Program-made: the position numbers and the translations under genes
Notes under the pieces: model-generated
Databases searched by the model: none
Told to the model about the DNA's origin: nothing
Seen by the model: only the letters and a program-made list of their open reading frames with translations
Part shown: in pieces, positions 41,058 to 58,875 of the stretch
How positions within the stretch are numbered: position 1 is the first letter of the stretch
Layout of the letters: the number at the start of each line of letters is the position of its first letter
Source of the DNA: a virus
Lineage: Duplodnaviria; Heunggongvirae; Uroviricota; Caudoviricetes
Direction: 5' to 3' (one strand)
Virus record (IMG/VR): IMGVR_UViG_3300028805_000076
Coordinates: 8,165 to 72,164 of that record
Length of the DNA stretch: 64,000 nt

Positions 41058-44000
41058 ATGGAGATAACTAATAGTATTGTCAAGAATTGTTTAACTGAAT
41101 ATGTACAAGATAGGTTTCAATTATTGACTGAAGACCAAAAAAGAACAATTCGCAACAAAATAACAAGGGGTGTTTCATCAAGAGTACCTCATCGTGTCGA
41201 TGATACCAAAATGATTGAGAAATTGGTTGATGATATATGGAATACATATGTTCTTCACCCACTTCACGATGGGGTTCATCATAGGCAAAATGATGAAATC
41301 ACTATAATCAATCAGAACATTGAAAGATTGATTCCATATGTTATAAAACAAAAAAGTGATAATGAATCTGAAAATGTTACTTACTATATTACAACAAATC
41401 CAAGAATTCGTAACAGTTGGGAGAACTTGATACAATCACAAAGGCAGAACAGAAATGTAACTTTGTGGGGAAACGATGGTGGAGATTTGACTTATTGGGA
41501 TGTAAACAAACGTTATAATGATGCTGTAAATTCTGCTAAAAACACTAAAATTGAAGGCAAGTACCATTACTCTGTTTACAAGGTAGAAAACTACGATACA
41601 CCAATTGAAGGGTTGGGAATGACAGTTAGTGAACTTGGACAGTATACTGGAGGAAAAGGCTCGCTAAAATGTGTTCCGTTGTGCTATACACAATCTCTAA
41701 ATACGTATAACAATTACACAAAAGGCAATGAATACAACATGTATGCTCTACTGCGTGACGGTTGGCAGAATGAACCATGCAAAATGACAGAAGGTTATCC
41801 ATTGGACAGCTATGGTTTGTCAATACTATTTGTAATTGTAGACCCTAATGGAAACATTGCATACAACAATGTAAGATGGAATCACGGACCAAAGGGGTAT
41901 CCAAGAAGTGTTGACAATATATTCACTTATAAGGAATTGGCAGAAATTGTTGGTAGCGATGTAATGGAACAAATTAACACTACTGCTGATGTGGACCAAT
42001 CGTTACGTTTTACATATGAGGTTGAAACTAAACTTAAAGAAGGTCAAGATATTAACGACATATTTATGTCTAAAGGTACAGAACGCTGTGGTTATATACC
42101 AGTTTGTTATATGCATAAATGGAATTTTCTTGATTCTTCAAAGTCTTTGTTATGTGACGAATGGTTCGATGGTGTTGGTAGTTTTCATCCAAATGGTTTT
42201 AGTTATGTCTATAAAAGCAACTTATATAACTTTATTGATTTTAATGGAGAACTTGTTTGGGATAGACCGCTTGAAGAATGGTTTAATCACATTGATTCGT
42301 GGTCATTTGATGTTTATGGCTTGTGTAGGGTTATGAAAGACTATCATTATAATTGGTTAAAGACTGATGGTACACTATTATTTAATAACCAACAACAAGA
42401 ATGGCTAGATAGAGCTAGTGATTTTCATAATCAAATTGCTTATATAAAATTACATGGTAAATACAATTATATTAGAACTGATGGTTCATTGGTTTGGGAT
42501 TATGATGACACACAATATTGGTTTGATGATGTTGCTGATAAAGGTTTTAATAACTCCAATGTTGCTATGGTAACAATTGACAGATTGGTTAATTTATTGA
42601 AAACAGATGGAACACTAGTTTGGAATAAACCACCTGAATTATGGTTTAATCACATTGTTGCTAATGATAGTAACAAAGATATATACCAAGTAGAACGTTC
42701 CAATAAATATAATTTCTTAAGAATGGATGGTACATTGGTTTGGCAGAAACCTTTTAATGAATGGTTTACATCAATTGGAGCATTCTATAATGGTTTGGCA
42801 AAAGTAACTACATCATTTGGTGAAACATATAATTTTATTAAAATGGACGGAACATTGCTGTTTGACGAAACAGATGATACAAAACATTTTGATAAAATTG
42901 GTAATTTCGCTAGTGGACCAGCATTTGTTTGCATAAATAATAAATATAATTTCATTAGAGAAGACGGAACTTATATTTGGGATAAACCAATAGGGCAATG
43001 GTTTGATAGTGTTAGCGAATATTTTAGAGAAGGTTTTGCTTGTGTGCGCAAGAAAGGAGTTGCAAATTTTATATCTACAGAAGGAAAGTTGTTATGGAAG
43101 AAACCATTAAAAGATTGGTTCAGTGGTGTAGACCCTTTTTATCAAGGGATAGCACAAGTACGAAAGAATGGCAAAAATAATTACATACGAACAAACGGGA
43201 AATTAGTTTTGAATAAACCATTTGATGAGTGGTTTTTCTGGATGGGTAAGGTTATAAATAGCCCTAATATATTTATTGTAAGAGATGCAATGAGATATAA
43301 CTATATTAAAGATGGTGAATTGTTATATAACCAACCGCATACAAAATGGTTTACTGATATAAGCAGAATGCTTGATAAAATCAATGATAATATATCTGGC
43401 TTCCTTGTACAAAAGGGATATAGGCACAATTTCTTGAAACTTGATGGAACACTTCTCAATAGCAGTTTCGTAAGTAAAAGTGAATTAGAATCTATAATTC
43501 GAAGAATAAAACATCAATCGTCCAATATACAAGAATCCTTAAGGGAATATGTAACTAAAAATTTACAACTTCTTACTGAAGACCAGAAGAAGACAATTCG
43601 TAACAAGATTGCAAGAGGTATTGTTTCAATGACTAATCTTGATGTAAACAGTACAGAAGTACAATCGTTAGTAGATAATGTTTGGAACATTTACGTTGTA
43701 CACCCAATTGAAGGCGAAAAGCGTCAGAATGACGAGATTACTGTAATTAATCAGAACATTGAAAGATTAGTACCGTATGTATTGAAGCAAAATGATTCTG
43801 AAAATTACTTTATAAGCAGCAATCCAAGGATTCGTAAAAGTTGGGAAAACTTGATACAAACCCAAAGGCAGAACAGACAAACCAATATATGGCAAGACAA
43901 TGATAATTTGCTTTATTGGAACACAAATAAAAAGTATAATGATGCAATAAATGCAGCAACAAGTGAAGAAATTAAAGGCAAGTATCATTATAGTGTGTAT

Positions 44001-47000
44001 AAGATAGAAGATTACAATACACCAATTGAAGGCTTGGGAATGACTGTTACAGAACTTGGCAAGTATACTGGTGGACAAGGCGCAGTTCCTTTGTGTTATA
44101 CACAATCTCAAGGTACATATAACAGTTATACTGAAAACAATCAATTTAATATGTATGCTGTGTTGCGTGATGGATGGCAGAATGAACCTTGTGAGATTGA
44201 AGAAGATTATCCATTGGATAGCTACGGTTTATCAATGATATTTGTAATTATTGATGAAAATGGAAAGATTGAATACAGTAATGTTAGATGGAATCACGGA
44301 CCAAGAAATTACAAAAGAAGTGTTGACAACATATTCTCGTACAATGAATTGAGGGATATTGTTGGAAGTAATGTAATTAAGCAAGTTGGGGCAAATGTAG
44401 AAATAGACACATCGTTACAATTGACATATGAGGTAGAGAAAAAGTTGAAACAAGACTTATCTATTTACCAAATATTTGGTAATGTTGGCTTTTTTAATGA
44501 CGGTTTGGCAAAGGTTTTCTATTCTGGTTTATACAATTACATAGATTCATCTGGAGACTTACTAACTGATGAATGGTTTGACTTTTGTTCTCCATTTCAA
44601 AATGGGCTTGCTGTGGTACGAAAAGGACATAAGGCAAATTATATAAAGACAGACGGTACTTATTTATACAACACAGATAATACTGATGATTGGTTTACTA
44701 TGGCAAGTTATTTTGATGAAAATGGTTCTGCTATCGTTGGAAAGAATCATAAATACAATTTTATTCTAAAAGATGGTACATTCATTTGGAAAGGTGAATG
44801 GTTTGATTGGGTTGGTGATTTTATTAATGATATTGCTCTAGTTAAAAAAGATAACAAAGCTAATTTTTTAAGATTTGATGGTACATTAGTTTGGAATTAT
44901 GAAAATACAAATGATTGGTTTAATGATGCTACTAATTTTAGTGCGGATTATCATGTCTCATTGGTTCAAAAAAATGGTAAATTTAATTATTTGAAGACTG
45001 ATGGTACATTTGTTTGGAATTATCTTGACACAAAGAAATGGTTTGATGGTTCTTATCATTTTTTTGATGGTATAGCTCAAGTTAAAGTCAACTATAAACA
45101 TGAAGAAAAATGGAACTACCTCAAACTAGATGGAACTTTTTTATGGAAGAAGCCACTAAAACAGTGGTTTGATAATGCTTATAGGTTTGATGAAGGTGTT
45201 GGTATAATAGAATATAAAGGCAAAAAAAATTGGTTAACAGCCAAAGGTGAAATATTTTGTCAAGATATGTGGTTTGATGGGGTTGGAACATTTCACGAAG
45301 GGATTACTAAAGTAGAAATAAACGGTAAATTTAACTTTTTAAATAGTAATGCTAAGTTATTGTGGGGGTCTTACGATGACACAACAGATTGGTTTGATTA
45401 CGTTGATAGGATTGAGCAAGGGTATGCTAAAGTAAGAAAACAAGGACGTTGGAACATATTACGACCAGATGGTAAATTATTGTGGGATTATTCAAATCCT
45501 CAAGATTGGTTTAATAATATTGGACCACTTGATAAAGAAGAAATAATATCTGTTTCAAAAGATGGTAAAAGTAATTATTTAAATCTTCAAGGTAAACTTC
45601 TAAACCAAAATTGGTTTGATAGTTGTTTTGTATTTGAGAATGGAGTTGGTAAAGTTCAAAAAGACCAACACATGAATCTAATCAGAAAAGATGGCACATT
45701 TGTATGGAACAGACCATTGAAAGATTGGTTTATTTTCATTGGCGAAGTAGACGATTTTGGTTGTGCAGAGGTATACACACATTATCAAGGTGCAACTGTT
45801 GGTAACGTATTGAAAATAGAAGATGGTACGTTACTGTGGAAGAAAAGTCCAAAATTCTGGTTTCGTTACATTGACGTTAATGAGATATTACCAAATGGTG
45901 TAAAAGGTTATAGAGTCTCAAAGGCAATAAAGACTATGATGAAATATAACTTCTTAAAGTTAGATGGTACTCTTCTTTTCAAAACATTTTTATCTGTTCA
46001 CAGCTATAAGTTGGCAATGAATGCTTTAAGTAATAATGATAATCAAATAATACAAGAATCTTTACGAGAATATGTTAAAGATAAGTCGTTGTTGGCTGAA
46101 GCCGATTCACGAATTAAGGGAACTAGAAACACAATTAAAAGGGGTATTGCTGCAATAACCAAACTTGACATTAATGACCCTATTGTAGAAAACTTGACAA
46201 ATGATGTTTGGAATACTTATGTTGTTCATCCTATCGCAAATGAAAATCGTCAGCTTGACGAATATATTGCCATTAGGAATAATGCTGACAGACTTCTTAT
46301 GTACGCTGTAAAACAGAACCAAGATGGTACATATTACATAACAAAAAATCCACGTTTGAAAAATGGCTTTGAGAATCTTATTCAAGCACAAAGGAAAGAT
46401 AATACAAAACAAATACTTGATAATAATGCAAATTTGTTCCAATGGTATAACACACAGAAATACAATCAAGCATTGGAAAACTTACAAGCCAATAGTAAAA
46501 AAATACAAGAAGGCAAATATAGTTACAAAGCATATCCAATCACTGATTTTTATGATAACATTAAAGGCTTGGGAATGACTGTTGAAGACCTTGGGGAGTG
46601 GACTGGTAGTGAAGAAGCTGTCGAATTGTGCTATACTCAATCTGAAGATACGTATAACCAATATACACACGGCAACAAATACAATATGTATGCTTTATTG
46701 CGCCAAGGTTGGCAAGACGAGCCTTGTGAGAAAGGAGAAGGTTATCCTTATGACAGCTACGGTCTTTCTATGATATTCGTAATTATCGATTATAATGGTG
46801 ATATAGCTACAAGTAATGTTAGATGGAATCACGGTGACAATTCTTATTCTAATGTAGATAATATGTTCACCTATTCTAAATTAGTACAAATTGTTGGTTC
46901 TAACATACTTAATAAAATACATTGTACATATAATGATGACATAACTCGTAATATGTCACTTATAGTAAGACTTGAAAAAGCTTTAAGCAATATTGATGCA

Positions 47001-48194
47001 ACTGATGTTGATTCATTTTGCGATGCTTTCGATAACATTTCACGCCAATATGAAGATTTGGAAAATGTTGAGCTATTTACTCTTGGAAGTGATAGGCTAA
47101 TAACCGTAGAATATGAAGAAACATATGCAAATATATATGATATAAAAGAGAAGCATTTTATTTCCGATGAATGGTTTTCTAGTATTTCGAATTATTCATG
47201 CGGCTATAGTACAGTACAATTCTTAAATGATGGAACATGGAATTTTATTGATGAAGAAGGCAATTTTTTAAATGACAAGCGTTATGACCACTGTTATGAT
47301 TTTGACAACGGATACGCTGTTGTTAAAAATAATCAAGAAATGTATGAAGTAATAAATATAAAAGGTGAATCATTATTTACCACAGATAGACGAGTCAGGT
47401 TTATTGGAGAAGAACGTGTAGCTTATGAAGACATTAATTATTCTTTATTATTGGATATGCGCGGTAAAAAAGTAGTTGACACATATTTTGATTATATTGG
47501 TTATTTTTACTGCGAAGGATATATTACAGTAAGTGTTGATAATAGAGTTAATTTTATAGACGCAAATGGAAAATATTTATCAGACGTTTGGTATCTTGAT
47601 GTTGAAAGACCATTTTCAAACGGCTGTGCTATAGTTAAATATGATAATGGTATGATAAATATGATTAATAAAAAATGTCAAAAGCTACTTAAAGAAGATG
47701 CTATAAGATGGAAAACAATGTATGATTATGTATATGAGAATGTATTGTACTATATATTTGATTTAGGCAGTCGTATTAAAGAATTTGTAAAAACAAACGG
47801 TCAAATTATATGTGATGCTCTAACTTTTAGTGATTCAAATAAACTTAGGAGGTTAAAAATACAATTTTTAGATTATAGTTGGAACTATTTAAAAGATGAT
47901 GGTACAATGTTATTACCATATAATTGTTATGAAATTTCAAATTTCTATGAGCATGATTATATTCAAGATATAAAGTTTGCAATTATCAAAAAAGAACCAA
48001 GTAAAGAATGTATTATTGATGTAAACGGAAATGAAATGACAGAAGAATATATATCAATGTATCCTTTAACAAGAACTGAAAACTATGTTGCTTTAGGTGT
48101 AAAAGGTCCAGATGATGGTTACAAAATTGATTATCAGTTTAACGCAATACCAATAAGTAAGGATGAATTTGTTAAGATGATAATGGATAATTAA
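41058..48194 (+). CDS. giant protein (2378 aa) of three tandem ~820-aa modules: unknown N-terminal Cys/His domain + KWG-like beta-propeller repeats
   Basis: module N-termini LTEDQKRTIRNKI...NQNIERL..YV.KQ at ~aa 1, ~820 and ~1660; conserved block YHYSVYK..GLGMTV.ELG.YTG...CYTQS..YN.YT..N.YNMYA.LR.GWQ.EPC...YP.DSYGLS..FVI.D.NG....NVRWNHG; then dozens of (K)YNFI..DGT..W..P...WFD....F..G.A.V repeats. Confidence 0.6.
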   Translation: MEITNSIVKNCLTEYVQDRFQLLTEDQKRTIRNKITRGVSSRVPHRVDDTKMIEKLVDDIWNTYVLHPLHDGVHHRQNDEITIINQNIERLIPYVIKQKSDNESENVTYYITTNPRIRNSWENLIQSQRQNRNVTLWGNDGGDLTYWDVNKRYNDAVNSAKNTKIEGKYHYSVYKVENYDTPIEGLGMTVSELGQYTGGKGSLKCVPLCYTQSLNTYNNYTKGNEYNMYALLRDGWQNEPCKMTEGYPLDSYGLSILFVIVDPNGNIAYNNVRWNHGPKGYPRSVDNIFTYKELAEIVGSDVMEQINTTADVDQSLRFTYEVETKLKEGQDINDIFMSKGTERCGYIPVCYMHKWNFLDSSKSLLCDEWFDGVGSFHPNGFSYVYKSNLYNFIDFNGELVWDRPLEEWFNHIDSWSFDVYGLCRVMKDYHYNWLKTDGTLLFNNQQQEWLDRASDFHNQIAYIKLHGKYNYIRTDGSLVWDYDDTQYWFDDVADKGFNNSNVAMVTIDRLVNLLKTDGTLVWNKPPELWFNHIVANDSNKDIYQVERSNKYNFLRMDGTLVWQKPFNEWFTSIGAFYNGLAKVTTSFGETYNFIKMDGTLLFDETDDTKHFDKIGNFASGPAFVCINNKYNFIREDGTYIWDKPIGQWFDSVSEYFREGFACVRKKGVANFISTEGKLLWKKPLKDWFSGVDPFYQGIAQVRKNGKNNYIRTNGKLVLNKPFDEWFFWMGKVINSPNIFIVRDAMRYNYIKDGELLYNQPHTKWFTDISRMLDKINDNISGFLVQKGYRHNFLKLDGTLLNSSFVSKSELESIIRRIKHQSSNIQESLREYVTKNLQLLTEDQKKTIRNKIARGIVSMTNLDVNSTEVQSLVDNVWNIYVVHPIEGEKRQNDEITVINQNIERLVPYVLKQNDSENYFISSNPRIRKSWENLIQTQRQNRQTNIWQDNDNLLYWNTNKKYNDAINAATSEEIKGKYHYSVYKIEDYNTPIEGLGMTVTELGKYTGGQGAVPLCYTQSQGTYNSYTENNQFNMYAVLRDGWQNEPCEIEEDYPLDSYGLSMIFVIIDENGKIEYSNVRWNHGPRNYKRSVDNIFSYNELRDIVGSNVIKQVGANVEIDTSLQLTYEVEKKLKQDLSIYQIFGNVGFFNDGLAKVFYSGLYNYIDSSGDLLTDEWFDFCSPFQNGLAVVRKGHKANYIKTDGTYLYNTDNTDDWFTMASYFDENGSAIVGKNHKYNFILKDGTFIWKGEWFDWVGDFINDIALVKKDNKANFLRFDGTLVWNYENTNDWFNDATNFSADYHVSLVQKNGKFNYLKTDGTFVWNYLDTKKWFDGSYHFFDGIAQVKVNYKHEEKWNYLKLDGTFLWKKPLKQWFDNAYRFDEGVGIIEYKGKKNWLTAKGEIFCQDMWFDGVGTFHEGITKVEINGKFNFLNSNAKLLWGSYDDTTDWFDYVDRIEQGYAKVRKQGRWNILRPDGKLLWDYSNPQDWFNNIGPLDKEEIISVSKDGKSNYLNLQGKLLNQNWFDSCFVFENGVGKVQKDQHMNLIRKDGTFVWNRPLKDWFIFIGEVDDFGCAEVYTHYQGATVGNVLKIEDGTLLWKKSPKFWFRYIDVNEILPNGVKGYRVSKAIKTMMKYNFLKLDGTLLFKTFLSVHSYKLAMNALSNNDNQIIQESLREYVKDKSLLAEADSRIKGTRNTIKRGIAAITKLDINDPIVENLTNDVWNTYVVHPIANENRQLDEYIAIRNNADRLLMYAVKQNQDGTYYITKNPRLKNGFENLIQAQRKDNTKQILDNNANLFQWYNTQKYNQALENLQANSKKIQEGKYSYKAYPITDFYDNIKGLGMTVEDLGEWTGSEEAVELCYTQSEDTYNQYTHGNKYNMYALLRQGWQDEPCEKGEGYPYDSYGLSMIFVIIDYNGDIATSNVRWNHGDNSYSNVDNMFTYSKLVQIVGSNILNKIHCTYNDDITRNMSLIVRLEKALSNIDATDVDSFCDAFDNISRQYEDLENVELFTLGSDRLITVEYEETYANIYDIKEKHFISDEWFSSISNYSCGYSTVQFLNDGTWNFIDEEGNFLNDKRYDHCYDFDNGYAVVKNNQEMYEVINIKGESLFTTDRRVRFIGEERVAYEDINYSLLLDMRGKKVVDTYFDYIGYFYCEGYITVSVDNRVNFIDANGKYLSDVWYLDVERPFSNGCAIVKYDNGMINMINKKCQKLLKEDAIRWKTMYDYVYENVLYYIFDLGSRIKEFVKTNGQIICDALTFSDSNKLRRLKIQFLDYSWNYLKDDGTMLLPYNCYEISNFYEHDYIQDIKFAIIKKEPSKECIIDVNGNEMTEEYISMYPLTRTENYVALGVKGPDDGYKIDYQFNAIPISKDEFVKMIMDN

Positions 48195-55952: not shown

Positions 55953-55975
55953 TATATATTTATTATTATAATTAA

Positions 55976-56013
55976 CAAAAAAAGACCAAGATTTATGTCT
56001 TGGTCTTTTTTTG
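55976..56013. terminator. bidirectional terminator (gaccaagat...tcttggtc)
   Basis: A7 upstream, T7 downstream. Confidence 0.55.
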
Positions 56014-56244
56014 TTTCTTTATCAATTCTTTTTCTTGATAATCAAATTTCTCAATCTTGTATTCTGTTTTTCTTTTTGTGCTTTTAGTAATTGATTTTGA
56101 TTTGTCACAGCATTGTTTCAGAACTACCTCCAATTCTTCGGCAGTGTCAGTTATTGGTGTAAAGGTCTCTTGGAACCACTTTGTCCAAGTGATTCCAGAG
56201 TTAGAGAAATATTCATATCTGCTTATAATCCTATATTTTTCCAT
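55993..56244 (-). CDS. hypothetical protein
   Basis: 83-aa ORF. Confidence 0.4.
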   Translation of the reverse strand: MEKYRIISRYEYFSNSGITWTKWFQETFTPITDTAEELEVVLKQCCDKSKSITKSTKRKTEYKIEKFDYQEKELIKKQKKTKT

Positions 56245-56291
56245 ACATTATAAAATGTATATAGTAAATATTGGAAAATAAAGAGTTATTA

Positions 56292-56447
56292 CTCCTTTTT
56301 CTTGAATTTCTTGACAATCCAATCCTTGATTGCCTTTATTTTGTCAATTGCCTTGATTACGAACGATGGCAATTCATTTGTCTTATATGCTGTATAGATA
56401 ATATAAGACAAAAATAAAATGATTAAAATGTAAATTACTTTTGCCAT
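56292..56447 (-). CDS. small membrane protein (51 aa) candidate
   Basis: MAKVIYILIILFLSYIIYTAY hydrophobic helix. Confidence 0.25.
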
Positions 56448-56510
56448 AATATAATGTTTTTTTTAATTCTTTATTGTTTCAGAATATTTATAAATAAATA
56501 TTTCGCTTAA

Positions 56511-57671
56511 ATGAAAAAGGAAGAATTAATTGAAATAAAGAAAGATAAAACTGGTACTGGTTTGCTTATAGAGCACGATGGATATATCAAACCAAACAGT
56601 CAACTAATCAAGGAAAGTATGGATGGTGAATGGCATTGTCCATTTCCATTCGTAGTTGATGCCGTATTTCAAAAGGCTGACGTAAAAAATGCGAATGGTC
56701 GTATTTATCCAAGAAAAATACTTGAAAGGGAAATTGAAAACTATCAGCAAAAAATACGTGAACATAGAGCACTAGGGGAATGCTATACACCAGATGTATT
56801 AGTCTTATGTGTAGATGGTTGGAAATGTATTTCTAGTATCACAGAAAATGATTCTGTATTAACTTTAAACACCTCTACCAACGAAATTGAAATCCAAAAA
56901 GTATCCAAAAAAATTGAATATGATTATGATGGTGAAATGATTAGGTTAGAAAGCAGTAACATATCTGATTTAGTTACACCAAATCATGGGTATCCAATAT
57001 ATAATGATAAAGATATTTTTGAAAATTTTTACACTGCTGAAGACATATTTAATGGTAATATAAATAATATTGAAAAATGTTATATTCCTAAATTTGTACC
57101 ATCTTTTGCTAATTGTGTTTCATTAAACAAAAATAAATTAATAGTTACAAAAGAAAATTATTGTGGGAAAGTAATGTGTATAGAAGTACCAAATCATACT
57201 TTTTACGTTATGTCAAATGGTAAATGCCATTGGAGTAAAAACTGCAATCACCCTAGTGATTCCACTATAGACCTTGGAAGAATCAGCCATAATATCATTG
57301 AATTGCATTGGGAAGGAAATACAGTAGTAGGTAAGCTTGAATTGAATATCAGTGAAGGTTTTAGAAGAAGCGGTATTTGCTCAACTCTTGGTGATACTGT
57401 TGCTAATCTTCTATTGAATGGCTATAAGATTGGTGTATCTTCTAGAGCAGTAGGAAGCGTAGAACAGAAACTTGGTGTACTAGTGGTTGGAGATGACCTA
57501 GAACTTATTTGTTGGGATGTGGTTAGCGACCCTAGTACAAATAATGCTTGGATAAGTATGAATGGTAAAGAAGAAATGCAAACTTGGATTGAAAATAAAG
57601 AAAATGTTGGAAATTCAAAAAATATTATTTCTGAAAAAATTACCAAAATAAAAAATATTTTAAATGGTTAG
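56511..57671 (+). CDS. protein with a mini-intein; extein resembles a T4 gp21-like prohead protease (low confidence)
   Basis: Hint blocks: CYTPDVLVL..DGWKCISSI (A), LVTPNHGYPIY (B), VMCIEVPNHTFYVMSNG (F), SKN|C (G). Confidence 0.5.
   Translation: MKKEELIEIKKDKTGTGLLIEHDGYIKPNSQLIKESMDGEWHCPFPFVVDAVFQKADVKNANGRIYPRKILEREIENYQQKIREHRALGECYTPDVLVLCVDGWKCISSITENDSVLTLNTSTNEIEIQKVSKKIEYDYDGEMIRLESSNISDLVTPNHGYPIYNDKDIFENFYTAEDIFNGNINNIEKCYIPKFVPSFANCVSLNKNKLIVTKENYCGKVMCIEVPNHTFYVMSNGKCHWSKNCNHPSDSTIDLGRISHNIIELHWEGNTVVGKLELNISEGFRRSGICSTLGDTVANLLLNGYKIGVSSRAVGSVEQKLGVLVVGDDLELICWDVVSDPSTNNAWISMNGKEEMQTWIENKENVGNSKNIISEKITKIKNILNG
56781..57242 (+). other. mini-intein (Hint domain, 154 aa, no endonuclease domain)
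   Basis: Cys1 at aa 91, terminal Asn at aa 244, +1 Cys. Confidence 0.5.
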
Positions 57672-57691
57672 TTCGAAGATTATATCCCAAA

Positions 57692-58678
57692 ATGATATTT
57701 ATTAATATAAATATTATTTTTTGTATGGGTAAAAAATTAACAACAGAAACGTTTAAAATACAATTAGAAAAAGAACATCCAAATCTAGAATTGTTATCTG
57801 AATATAATGGAAATAAAAATTATATAACTGTACGATGTAAAATACATAACTACGTTTTTAATACAAAACCAAATTGGCTTCATAAAGGGCAAGGATGCCA
57901 AAAATGTTATGATGAAAAAAGAGGTGAAACAACAAGGAAAAAAATAGAAGATTTTATAAAAGAAGCGAATTTAATTCATAAAAATAAATATGATTATTCT
58001 AACGTTGTTTATAAAAACAATAAAGCCAAAATCTGTATAATTTGCCCAATTCATGGTGAATTTTGGCAAACTCCAAATAAACATTTAAGTGGTCAAGGAT
58101 GTCCAAAATGTTCTGGTAAAAATAAAACAACAGAAGAAATTATTGATATTTTCAACAAAATTCACAAAAATTATTATAACTATAATAAAGTTGAATATAA
58201 AAATAATAAAGCTAAAATATGCATAATTTGTCCTATTCATGGTGAATTTTGGCAAACACCAGAAAAACATATTCAAGGAGAGGGTTGTCCATTATGTAAA
58301 TCTAGTAAATTAGAAATGACTGTTAGAAATTTTTTATTAGATAATAATATTGATTTCATAAGGCAAGCCAAATTTAATTGGCTAGGCAAACAATCATTAG
58401 ATTTTTATTTGCCAATATATAATATTGCAATCGAATGCCAAGGAGAACAACATTTTAAAGAATTTAGTGGGAAATTTAAACTTAAAAATACATTAGATAA
58501 AAGAATACAATTAGATATAACAAAAAATGATTTATGTAACAAAAATGGGATAAAAATATTTTATTTCTTTAATAGAAAATGGGAACATAAATCTTTAGAT
58601 AAAATTTTCAATAACATATATAATTCCAATGTGATATTTGAAAATGAAATTAGTAAATTAAAAGATATTTTAAGTTAA
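57692..58678 (+). CDS. zinc-finger repeat protein with a C-terminal DUF559/Vsr-like PD-(D/E)xK nuclease domain
   Basis: two ~60-aa repeats ...CPIHGEFWQTP.KH..G.GCP.C; C-terminal DFYLPIYNIAIECQGEQH. Confidence 0.45.
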   Translation: MIFININIIFCMGKKLTTETFKIQLEKEHPNLELLSEYNGNKNYITVRCKIHNYVFNTKPNWLHKGQGCQKCYDEKRGETTRKKIEDFIKEANLIHKNKYDYSNVVYKNNKAKICIICPIHGEFWQTPNKHLSGQGCPKCSGKNKTTEEIIDIFNKIHKNYYNYNKVEYKNNKAKICIICPIHGEFWQTPEKHIQGEGCPLCKSSKLEMTVRNFLLDNNIDFIRQAKFNWLGKQSLDFYLPIYNIAIECQGEQHFKEFSGKFKLKNTLDKRIQLDITKNDLCNKNGIKIFYFFNRKWEHKSLDKIFNNIYNSNVIFENEISKLKDILS

Positions 58679-58683
58679 TAGTT

Positions 58684-58875
58684 ATGGCCGATAAGGATGA
58701 TATTATAAAAATTCACAAAAAGATAAAATTCCAAACAATTTGTCCAATTTGTGACACAGAAATACATTTTTCAATGTGGAACATTATATTTGGTTTTAGC
58801 CCAGCAGAATCATTAATGTGTCCATATTGTACAAGCAAATTTGAACTTACTGACGAAAATATGCAACACATATAA
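58684..58875 (+). CDS. zinc-ribbon protein
   Basis: CPICD...CPYC. Confidence 0.4.
   Translation: MADKDDIIKIHKKIKFQTICPICDTEIHFSMWNIIFGFSPAESLMCPYCTSKFELTDENMQHI

Follow-up and report, generated by a model that had tools for sequence, protein, structure and literature searches.

Class 1 inteins usually carry an aspartate at position 4 of block F (F:4). In those of phages, the penultimate histidine, at position 6 of block G (G:6), is known to have given way to Gly, Lys or Ser (PMC5050341), and departures at both G:6 and F:4 are known polymorphisms, the canonical residues not being needed for intein membership (PMC2807308, PMC5050341, PMC7891396). Among phages, inteins with an N-terminal cysteine (Cys1) occur in genes of nucleotide metabolism and packaging, as in the NrdA of the T5-like Salmonella phage Shivani, the nucleotidyltransferase (NT) of mycobacteriophage Alice and the thymidylate synthase of Corynebacterium phage P1201. 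These share a signature of Cys1, VTPNH, a Cys at F:4, and Gly or Lys at G:6 followed by Asn. A further relative, the AceL NrdHF-1-1 intein (6ZGQ; PMC7891396), comes from an Antarctic contig of phage-like character; it belongs to class 3 and is naturally split. The WCT triplet of class 3 comprises Trp at B:12, Cys at F:4 and Thr at G:5, in place of which AceL, a proven member of class 3, has MCT (PMC7891396).

The locus described here lies in a 64,000-nucleotide stretch of viral DNA (the window). Residues C91-N244 of one of its encoded proteins very probably constitute a genuine mini-intein, a protein-splicing element of the HINT fold that resides in the gp21-type protease of a large AT-rich phage and would be spliced via Cys1. 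Among the samples in which the phage is present are ERZ27256871 and SRR9006654. A literature search combining intein with gp21 or with prohead, head maturation or capsid maturation protease returned no description of such an element, and in the Jug-phage paper prohead protease genes are called fragmented or divergent, nothing more. Across 50,697 GenBank phage records, no such intein was found in an annotated prohead protease; the sole match among them was LR756508.1, an unannotated 484-kb metagenomic phage. The gp21-type prohead protease is an insertion site that was not found described, and the intein is otherwise ordinary.

The interrupted protease

The precursor is encoded at positions 56511..57671 (this and all other features lie on the plus strand) and comprises 386 amino acids plus a stop codon. 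By its sequence it is clearly assigned as a T4 gp21-type prohead core serine protease, a member of Peptidase_S77, interrupted by the mini-intein. An earlier note on this DNA had described the sequence around the insert as loosely resembling the T4 gp21 family, which understated the case. In a Pfam scan, the precursor matches PF03420 (Peptidase_S77) at 1.4e-18, its 67.5 bits being well above the cut-off of 27, with the match falling into two stretches, one on each side of the intein, and phrog_207 (head maturation protease) matches at 2.4e-36. The structure of T4 gp21 (PDB 5JBL) likewise aligns in two pieces, precursor residues 47-94 and 247-358, which flank the insert. It was the sole match when the whole precursor was searched against the PDB with phmmer, a search that returned no intein. 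The likeness to T4 gp21 consists of an alignment that spans both catalytic motifs, ALGE-x-NHP with the His and GVSSRxxGS with the Ser. T4 gp21 is also of the same length class as the intein-free homologs of the window protease, and its identity to the window extein is low (38-40 bits by phmmer).

The N-extein (M1-E90; 56511..56780) ends in ...REHRALGE, as placed by end-to-end alignment with intein-free homologs. The C-extein (C245-G386; 57243..57668) begins with the +1 Cys (Cys245; codon 57243-57245), followed by Asn, the catalytic His247 and Pro, and this CNHP motif does not vary among homologs, whether or not they carry an intein. T4 gp21, which has no intein, reads GELNHP, whereas the clade of the window protease has at that Leu position the Cys that would serve as the +1 nucleophile. 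Both His247 and the catalytic Ser310 (codon 57438-57440) are invariant and align with the two residues that are replaced by Ala in the 5JBL chain of T4 gp21. The triad of gp21-type proteases is His-Ser-Asp (PMC5694885), and its third member is probably Asp336, a position assigned by eye.

The mini-intein occupies 154 amino acids or 462 bp (56781..57242) between E90 and C245, and is numbered here C1-N154. Its insertion point is situated two residues ahead of His247, which is aligned with an active-site position of 5JBL. The earlier note had placed the element at exactly these coordinates, at what would be the catalytic His motif, and had quoted Hint blocks A, B, F and G, all of which are present. 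Block A (CYTPDVLVL..DGWKCISSI) opens with the nucleophile Cys1 (codon 56781-56783), which is invariant in 27 of 27 mini-inteins and in all 120 homologs, and is present in 234 of 246 related copies. When clade members lacking Cys1 were sought among the 12 apparent exceptions, nine proved to be alignment offsets, with a Cys one or two residues upstream, and the other three were not convincing. Since none of the 12 is convincing, this search gives no support to the dispensability of Cys1.

Block B (T66-P-N-H69-G-Y71, within VTPNH; 56976..56993) contributes an invariant Thr at B:7 and an invariant His at B:10, along with Tyr at B:12, a position that is Tyr or Phe within the gp21 intein family and Met, Phe, Leu or Ile across the wider clade. 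In block F (C133-I-E-V-P-N138-H139, VMCIEVPNHTFYV; 57177..57197), C133, N138 and H139 are invariant. C133 is the F:4 residue, and its counterparts in the alignment are the position-4 Asp of the KlbA intein of Methanocaldococcus jannaschii (Mja) and C124(A) of AceL NrdHF. Block G (H150-W151-S152-K153-N154, or HWSKN followed by C; 57228..57242) has invariant H150 and N154 and a nearly invariant W151, with Ser or Thr at G:5 in the gp21 intein homologs. The terminal Asn (N244 of the precursor; codon 57240-57242) is followed by Cys in 120 of 120 homologs. In all, the 27 mini-inteins, a diverse set, show no variation at C1, T66, H69, C133, N154 and C+1, and the splice junctions are likewise invariant in the 120 homologs.

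The canonical assisting residues are missing from the window intein, which has Lys rather than His at G:6 and Cys rather than Asp at F:4. The earlier note had called the penultimate Lys atypical, a description that is right by the textbook consensus and fails within the family, where G:6 is Lys in 90 of the 120 homologs, Ser in 15, Gly in 12 and His in only 3.

Empty, full-length and reduced alleles

The insertion is polymorphic among close relatives. Intein-free homologs of 227-238 amino acids read ALGE|CNHPS, and one of these (P0121; 231 amino acids), encoded in a syntenic contig, shares 93% identity with the spliced extein. At the DNA level, syntenic contig L001 lacks exactly nucleotides 56781-57242 (462 bp). 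The empty site reads ...CTAGGGGAA|TGCAATCACCC... across the insertion point. In amino acid sequence, the N-extein and its L001 counterpart agree at 100% of positions, at a dS of 0.08, and dS rises from 0.08 upstream of the insertion site to 0.47 downstream, possibly a mosaic boundary. The alignment of eight IMG/VR relatives also breaks at residue 91. The extein thereby aligns to intein-free homologs with a clean insertion of 154 amino acids, and the possibility raised in the earlier note, that these residues form an integral domain of the protease, is ruled out.

Other close relatives carry at the same site an intein of 335-374 amino acids with a LAGLIDADG nuclease, and PF14528 was found in the homologous full-length insert of P0029. 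The window element has no such domain, as the earlier note had proposed: a Pfam scan of the 154 amino acids returned no LAGLIDADG or HNH match, and they align to both ends of the 360-370-amino acid alleles with about 213 residues missing, including both LAGLIDADG-type motifs. The scar of the lost homing endonuclease domain lies at 57065..57137 (approximately residues 185-209 of the precursor; NNIEKCYIPKFVPSFANCVSLNKNK), where 73 nucleotides replace 712 nucleotides of the full-length allele of contig L006. The window element is derived from an intein of about 365 amino acids with a LAGLIDADG homing endonuclease at this same site, the domain having later been lost. With its nuclease gone, the element is therefore no longer capable of homing by itself. 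It may persist because an essential gene requires precise splicing.

In related proteases, a second intein site is found immediately past the catalytic His, and homologs number roughly 2,700. This second site, the nuclease-bearing full-length relatives and the invariant Cys at F:4 did not feature in the earlier note.

Identity of the element and its proposed route of splicing

The profile search that the earlier note had proposed for the Hint blocks gave a divided answer. Curated profiles fell short: on the window intein, Pfam Intein_splicing (PF14890) reached 20.9-22.4 bits, below its gathering cut-off of 35.8, and PT-HINT reached 17-18 bits, below its cut-off of 27.7, and an NCBIfam scan of the intein gave zero matches. 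A profile of the family itself, in contrast, reached intein sequences in the PDB, the best match being the Mja KlbA intein (2e-6) and the second the AceL NrdHF intein (4.5e-5). Additionally, a search with just the 154 amino acids reached 3874 cluster representatives at E<=1e-3, and relatives of the element are located in proteins that pass Pfam Intein_splicing (for example 165 bits for P0231 and 52.3 bits for P0251). The AF2 model of the intein has a pLDDT of 96.4 and a pTM of 0.90. When this model was searched against the PDB with Foldseek, all 35 matches at E<=1e-3 were intein, bacterial intein-like or hedgehog HINT structures, with a probability of 1.0. The best of these was 6ZGQ (TM 0.81, E 5.6e-8), the other matches having TM <=0.72. 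The failure of the curated profiles is set aside because the family profile reaches PDB inteins and the fold search returns only HINT and intein structures.

The element is also under purifying selection. Values of dN/dS in the splicing domain are 0.04-0.2, similar to those of the exteins and rough in that dS is near saturation in several comparisons, and the low ratio extends to the comparison with a second mini-intein in which the same stretch is deleted, at a dS of about 1. Base composition carries no signal of foreign origin, the intein GC of 0.26 against 0.34 for the exteins being inside the local range, and a family-profile scan of the six-frame translation of the whole window found no further copies of the mini-intein.

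From these residues, the element is probably active in splicing, and the following order of steps is proposed. The active-site strand of the 386-residue, 44-kDa precursor would be interrupted, and hence the precursor would have no protease activity. Upon folding of the intein, Cys1, aided by T66 and H69 of block B, would convert the E90-C91 peptide bond into a thioester, and the N-extein would be handed to the +1 Cys245. Cyclisation of Asn154 would then free the intein without a penultimate His, for which the invariant H139 or H150 may stand in. Finally, an S-to-N shift would restore the native ...ALGE-CNHPS... junction (...HRALGE-CNHPSDSTIDLGR...) and yield a protease of 232 amino acids and ~26 kDa, with the architecture of the intein-free homologs, alongside an excised intein of ~18 kDa.

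An alternative assigns the first attack on the N-terminal junction to C133 rather than Cys1, either as a class 3-type route or with both routes in use, in which a branched thioester would form at block F and the N-extein would then pass to Cys+1. C133 is invariant at F:4 and aligned with the branch-point Cys124 of the AceL class 3 intein, which is by far the best structural match. Both inteins have Ser or Thr at G:5 and lack a His at G:6, and in each a Pro kinks block F (VPGK in AceL, VPNH in the window intein; PMC7891396). Among about 200 related copies, nearly all have Cys at F:4, Ser, Thr or Cys at G:5 and Gly at G:6. However, the operational definition of class 3 demands the absence of an N-terminal Cys (PMC7891396), and related mycobacteriophage inteins that combine Cys1 with a Cys at F:4, such as Alice NT, are treated as class 1 (PMC5050341). 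The window intein has an invariant Cys1 where class 3 inteins have no Cys, Ser or Thr, and its equivalent of the WCT triplet is Y71 (B:12), C133 (F:4) and S152 (G:5), with Tyr in place of Trp. Class 3 inteins with an N-terminal nucleophile are reportedly known from the work of Tori & Perler in 2011. The strong retention of Cys1, which is invariant here and essentially clade-wide, argues for its use, and a first attack by C133 is considered unlikely.

A broader proposal, similarly doubtful, treats the entire clade as mechanistically hybrid: the block F Cys would be the first nucleophile, whether in use or switchable, with Cys1 kept. Such a clade would represent the long-postulated intermediate from class 1 to class 3 for at least one class 3 lineage. 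The gp21 intein clade is very large and phage-borne, often with several copies per protein, and is characterised by an invariant Cys1 and F:4 Cys, by Ser, Thr or Cys at G:5 and by the lack of a penultimate His. The AceL intein, its only structurally characterised close relative, has lost Cys1 and follows the class 3 route.

Splicing might also be conditional. Disulfide or metal chemistry among C1, C133 and C+1 would delay splicing until a given redox state or stage of infection, thereby making the intein a timer of protease activation and not a selfish insert alone. These three active-site cysteines are invariant, the class 3 DnaB intein of mycobacteria has been shown to splice in response to redox state and zinc (PMC6195587, PMC7360933), and premature activity of a prohead protease would in principle be harmful. 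Yet the 93% identical relative on the syntenic contig manages without an intein, such that no essential regulatory role is needed, and alleles of all three kinds (empty, with a nuclease and without one) occur side by side, as is classically the case for a selfish homing element. A regulatory function of this kind is accordingly held to be improbable.

It is more improbable again that the element is a decayed HINT domain that no longer splices, either retained or cleavage-only in the manner of a bacterial intein-like domain, in which case the gene would either be a pseudogene or encode a protease with one additional domain. The sub-threshold profile scores, the lack of a penultimate His and of a block F Asp, the prior loss of the homing endonuclease, and the rank of bacterial intein-like domains as third to eighth in the Foldseek search all speak for decay. 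On the other hand, none of the residues needed for the four splicing steps varies, whether C1, TxxH, the Asn at the end or the +1 Cys, and the dN/dS of the splicing domain is low. Bacterial intein-like domains are without a +1 nucleophile and yield mostly cleavage products (PMC7664689), whereas the +1 Cys is invariant here, and an insert that stayed in place so near the catalytic His, two residues away, would disrupt the active site of an essential enzyme. Lastly, an intervening sequence acting at the RNA or DNA level and open in frame by chance, such as a group I intron of the sort abundant in related jumbo gut phages (PMC12880540), can practically be dismissed, given that no real intron emerged when 56000-58800 was scanned with Rfam, that a 154-codon open frame has a chance probability of about 7e-6 at the local base composition, and that the element has protein-level conservation, a low dN/dS and a confidently predicted HINT fold.

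Significance and comparison with known inteins

The element adds the T4-type prohead protease to the host proteins of inteins, at a site two residues from the catalytic His that is consistent with the preference of inteins for essential genes and their most conserved, least deletable positions. All three stages of the homing cycle are found at this one site, which provides a compact natural dataset on the gain, decay and loss of inteins in uncultured large phages. For annotation, the element accounts for prohead protease genes that seem too long or divergent in such phages. For intein biochemistry and engineering, it offers a small (154 amino acids), cysteine-rich intein that is preceded by Glu at -1 and followed by Cys, Asn and His at +1, +2 and +3. 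In the make-up of its active site it is intermediate between class 1 inteins and AceL, a fast intein of class 3, and it is thus a cheap test case for whether an F:4 Cys can be catalytic despite the presence of Cys1.

Inteins that interrupt the active-site region of a protease are also cited for the chloroplast ClpP of Chlamydomonas eugametos and the Lon of Pyrococcus abyssi (reference lists of PMC5050341 and PMC4031507), the ClpP intein being noted for its unusual junction residues as well. The likeness is drawn from this literature alone, and both proteases are unrelated to gp21 in fold and in organism. The class 2 mini-intein of Mja KlbA (2JMZ) resembles the window intein in its similar size, lack of a penultimate His and +1 Cys, and differs in its Ala1, its Asp at F:4, its archaeal origin and its host protein.

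The AceL intein, in addition to the Cys at F:4, Ser or Thr at G:5, absence of a penultimate His and block F Pro kink, has a comparable length of ~150 amino acids and a hydrophobic, non-Trp residue at B:12. It has Ala1 and a +1 Ser, and is encoded in two genes with an intervening GIY-YIG gene, in a ribonucleotide reductase host. The window intein, in contrast, is contiguous and resides in a protease, begins with an invariant Cys1, is followed by Cys at +1 and is only 18% identical to the AceL intein. The Cys1 phage inteins of Shivani, Alice and P1201 have N-terminal halves that are 33-41% identical to that of the window intein (phrog_85, 1e-8). They occupy other hosts and insertion sites, and most have a homing endonuclease and Ser or Thr at +1, whereas the signature running from Cys1 through VTPNH and the F:4 Cys to the terminal Asn is common to all of them and to the intein of the window protease.

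The insert and its host protease

The segment at nt 56781-57242 (+) lies within a 386-aa precursor ORF (56511-57671, + strand) and encodes residues C91 to N244, here numbered C1 to N154, with C245 as the next residue; the coordinates and intein motifs quoted in the earlier note are all present in this ORF. At the base composition of the window (33% GC overall, 26% in the segment), 154 codons without a stop would arise by chance with a probability of about 7e-6, and no Rfam family matched in the intein region. The Pfam family Peptidase_S77 (prohead core protein serine protease) matches the precursor in two stretches on either side of the insert at 67.5 bits (cut-off 27), PHROG 207, a head maturation protease, matches at 2.4e-36, and T4 gp21 (5JBL), the sole solved structure reached by sequence, matches residues 47-94 and 247-358, with a gap that coincides exactly with the insert position. 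The kinship to T4 gp21 proposed in the earlier note thus stands, but it is closer than the "loosely" used there. H247 and S310 are invariant among the protease homologs and align with two alanines of the crystallised 5JBL chain, which is a catalytically inactive variant. Considered with the His-Ser-Asp triad described for T4 gp21 (PMC5694885), these alignments place the insert two residues ahead of the catalytic His.

Curated profiles are by themselves insufficient to decide intein identity: Intein_splicing and PT-HINT of Pfam score the insert at 20.9-22.4 and 17-18 bits, below their cut-offs of 35.8 and 27.7, and the NCBIfam search returned no match. A search of 1.84 billion proteins with the 154 residues alone, however, retrieves 3874 cluster representatives (E<=1e-3). 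Many of these relatives are giant multi-intein proteins well above the Pfam intein cut-offs; P0231, in which Hint, Hom_end and LAGLIDADG_3 domains are also present, reaches an Intein_splicing score of 165 bits, and the protease P0251 one of 52 bits. A family profile built from 27 mini-inteins of the same insertion site, searched against the PDB, did find inteins, namely those of Methanocaldococcus jannaschii (Mja) KlbA (2e-6) and AceL NrdHF (4.5e-5), along with the Spl DnaX mini-intein and a bacterial intein-like domain. An AlphaFold model from the same alignment (pLDDT 96.4, pTM 0.90) yields HINT domains throughout as its Foldseek PDB matches at E<=1e-3. It is these sequence relatives, profile matches to solved structures and predicted fold that settle the intein nature of the segment and, with the insertion polymorphism, leave the original reading as a 154-aa mini-intein essentially correct. 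Accordingly, nt 56781-57242 almost certainly encode an intein in a gp21-type protease.

Empty, full-length and nuclease-less alleles

All 120 top matches to the whole precursor are interrupted at the same position and fall into two size classes, one of about 380 aa with inserts of 143-175 aa (40 proteins) and one of about 600 aa with inserts of 317-374 aa (80 proteins). With the conceptually spliced extein as query, numerous proteins of 227-238 aa are matched, best of all P0121 (231 aa; 93% identity over 99% of the query). The alignment contains exactly 154 gapped columns between ...ALGE and CNHPS.... The alignment to intein-free homologs thus confirms a clean insertion polymorphism, and the 154 residues are not an integral domain of the family. 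P0121 is encoded on a syntenic contig, L001, which lacks nt 56781-57242 and whose empty site, ...CTAGGGGAA joined directly to TGCAATCACCC..., fuses both window junctions. Among IMG/VR relatives, many of them on contigs of 200-400 kb, eight have a break at residue 91 and approximately 26 are uninterrupted.

Nucleotide identity to L001 is 97.9% over window positions 55970-56793 and 89.1% over 57243-58685. Correspondingly, dS rises from 0.08 in the N-extein (56511-56780) to 0.47 in the C-extein (57243-57668). Because divergence jumps at the insertion site, a recombination boundary is suggested there, which may have been left by co-conversion during homing or by a recombination event that removed or introduced the intein. 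A second presence/absence polymorphism lies some 0.8 kb ahead of the intein, where L001 (4561-5458; window position ~55975), otherwise 94-98% identical, has an extra ~900 bp between an AAA_33 kinase-like gene and an 83-aa ORF; this segment, without counterpart in the window, holds an ORF of 296 aa for which neither Pfam nor PHROG gave a match.

In P0002 (599 aa) and P0004 (594 aa), respectively 88% and 81% identical overall, the same site is occupied by an intein of 367 aa, of which the first ~103 and last ~42 residues align with the window intein. The ~213 residues between these two parts, missing from the window intein, hold two LAGLIDADG-type motifs (...MKFMGIYLSEGD... and ...FVLGDGRIRGD...), in agreement with the absence of a homing endonuclease remarked on earlier; the homologous insert of P0029 matches PF14528 (LAGLIDADG_3) at 1e-11. 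In the gene, 73 nt (57065-57137) stand in place of 712 nt of the P0004 gene. This replacement and the missing LAGLIDADG part show that the window intein derives from a homing intein by deletion. Close relatives have empty, nuclease-bearing and nuclease-less alleles side by side, as in the classical homing cycle.

The protease gene is followed directly by a 328-aa ORF (57692-58678, +) that resembles a free-standing homing endonuclease and also adjoins the intein-free allele in L001. This ORF matches phrog_559 'HNH endonuclease' (1.2e-63), phrog_9084 'homing endonuclease', and Pfam DUF723 and treble-clef zinc finger families, and KNNKAKICIICPIHGEFWQTP occurs in it twice as an internal tandem duplication. 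The source of the window is a 141-kb metagenomic contig of an AT-rich phage, and other genes in the window encode a gp19-type tail tube protein, an SF2 helicase, an NAPRTase, an RNA ligase and a 2378-aa WG-repeat protein (41058-48194, +; WG-containing beta repeats at 5e-28 as its sole clear Pfam signal).

Conservation and probable splicing route

Invariant in all 27 mini-inteins are C1, T66 and H69 of the block B TxxH motif, C133, N138 and H139 of block F, H150, N154 and the +1 Cys, and the C-terminal junction xN-C(N/D)HP is found in 120 of 120 homologs. Nei-Gojobori dN/dS ratios of the window against three further alleles, including the mini-intein P0003 with the same internal deletion (dS ~1), are 0.04-0.2 in the splicing domain and 0.03-0.17 in the exteins; with dS near saturation these ratios are approximate, yet their direction clearly points to a nuclease-less intein maintained in a functional state. 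Typical of nuclease-less phage inteins and probably active, the window intein would very likely splice.

The penultimate Lys had been called atypical. The usual His is indeed absent, but Lys is the norm at this protease site (K in 90, S in 15, G in 12 and H in 3 of 120 homologs), and phage class 1 inteins with Gly, Lys or Ser in place of this His are on record (PMC5050341). The invariant C133 at block F position 4 was overlooked in the earlier note. This position is usually Asp in class 1 inteins, and a Cys there marks class 3 (PMC2807308), in which the block F Cys is the first nucleophile. In profile alignments C133 corresponds to the position-4 Asp of the KlbA intein and to the branch-point Cys of the AceL NrdHF intein (residue 124; replaced by Ala in the crystal). 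The latter is by a clear margin the best structural match of the predicted model (Foldseek TM 0.81); it has Ala1, an MCT triplet instead of WCT and Gly at G:6, and follows a class 3 mechanism despite partly class 1-like behaviour (PMC7891396). These likenesses speak for a class 3-like or dual route, which is nonetheless improbable given the strict retention of Cys1. Because Cys1 is so kept, ordinary class 1 initiation is favoured, and C133 may take the assisting role usually filled by Asp.

Related inteins in other phages

Among 50,697 GenBank phage records, only one, an unannotated 484-kb metagenomic phage, contains an intein-bearing homolog of the protease. No paper describing an intein in a gp21-type protease came up in literature searches; of prohead protease genes, a Jug-phage study says only that they are fragmented or divergent (PMC12880540). 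The host protein and insertion site are therefore new as far as these searches reach, and the type of intein is known.

Uncultured phages have members of the same clade in numerous other genes, often in several copies per protein: eight stretches of P0231 (2602 aa) match the window intein, P0263 (1150 aa) has three such inteins, and others lie in P0233 (Mu-type portal, 1276 aa) and P0239 (RNA ligase, 1379 aa), with Cys1, F:4 Cys and G:6 Gly common to all copies in these four proteins. The prohead proteases P0246 (770 aa) and P0251 (763 aa) each have a pair of inteins of the clade, separated by just five residues, which bracket the catalytic His (...ALGE-intein 1-CDHPD-intein 2-SAV...). Across the collected proteins, 137 have an intein at the first site (before C-N/D-H-P), 33 at the second (after H-P-x) and two at both. 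These paired sites, along with the block F Cys, raise the mechanistic interest of the family.

Over approximately 200-250 related intein copies from diverse proteins, Cys1 is essentially universal, TxxH is conserved, B:12 is M/F/L/I/Y, F:4 is nearly always Cys and G:5 is S/T/C; G:6 is Gly in 175 of 203 and G:7 Asn in 194 of 203, and the +1 residue is Ser (138), Cys (31) or Thr (30). The searchable literature yielded no discussion of what the pairing of Cys1 with F:4 Cys means mechanistically. As a sequence, this combination is already known, since the annotated inteins in NrdA of the T5-like phage Shivani and in the nucleotidyltransferase of mycobacteriophage Alice have the same residue signature as the clade.
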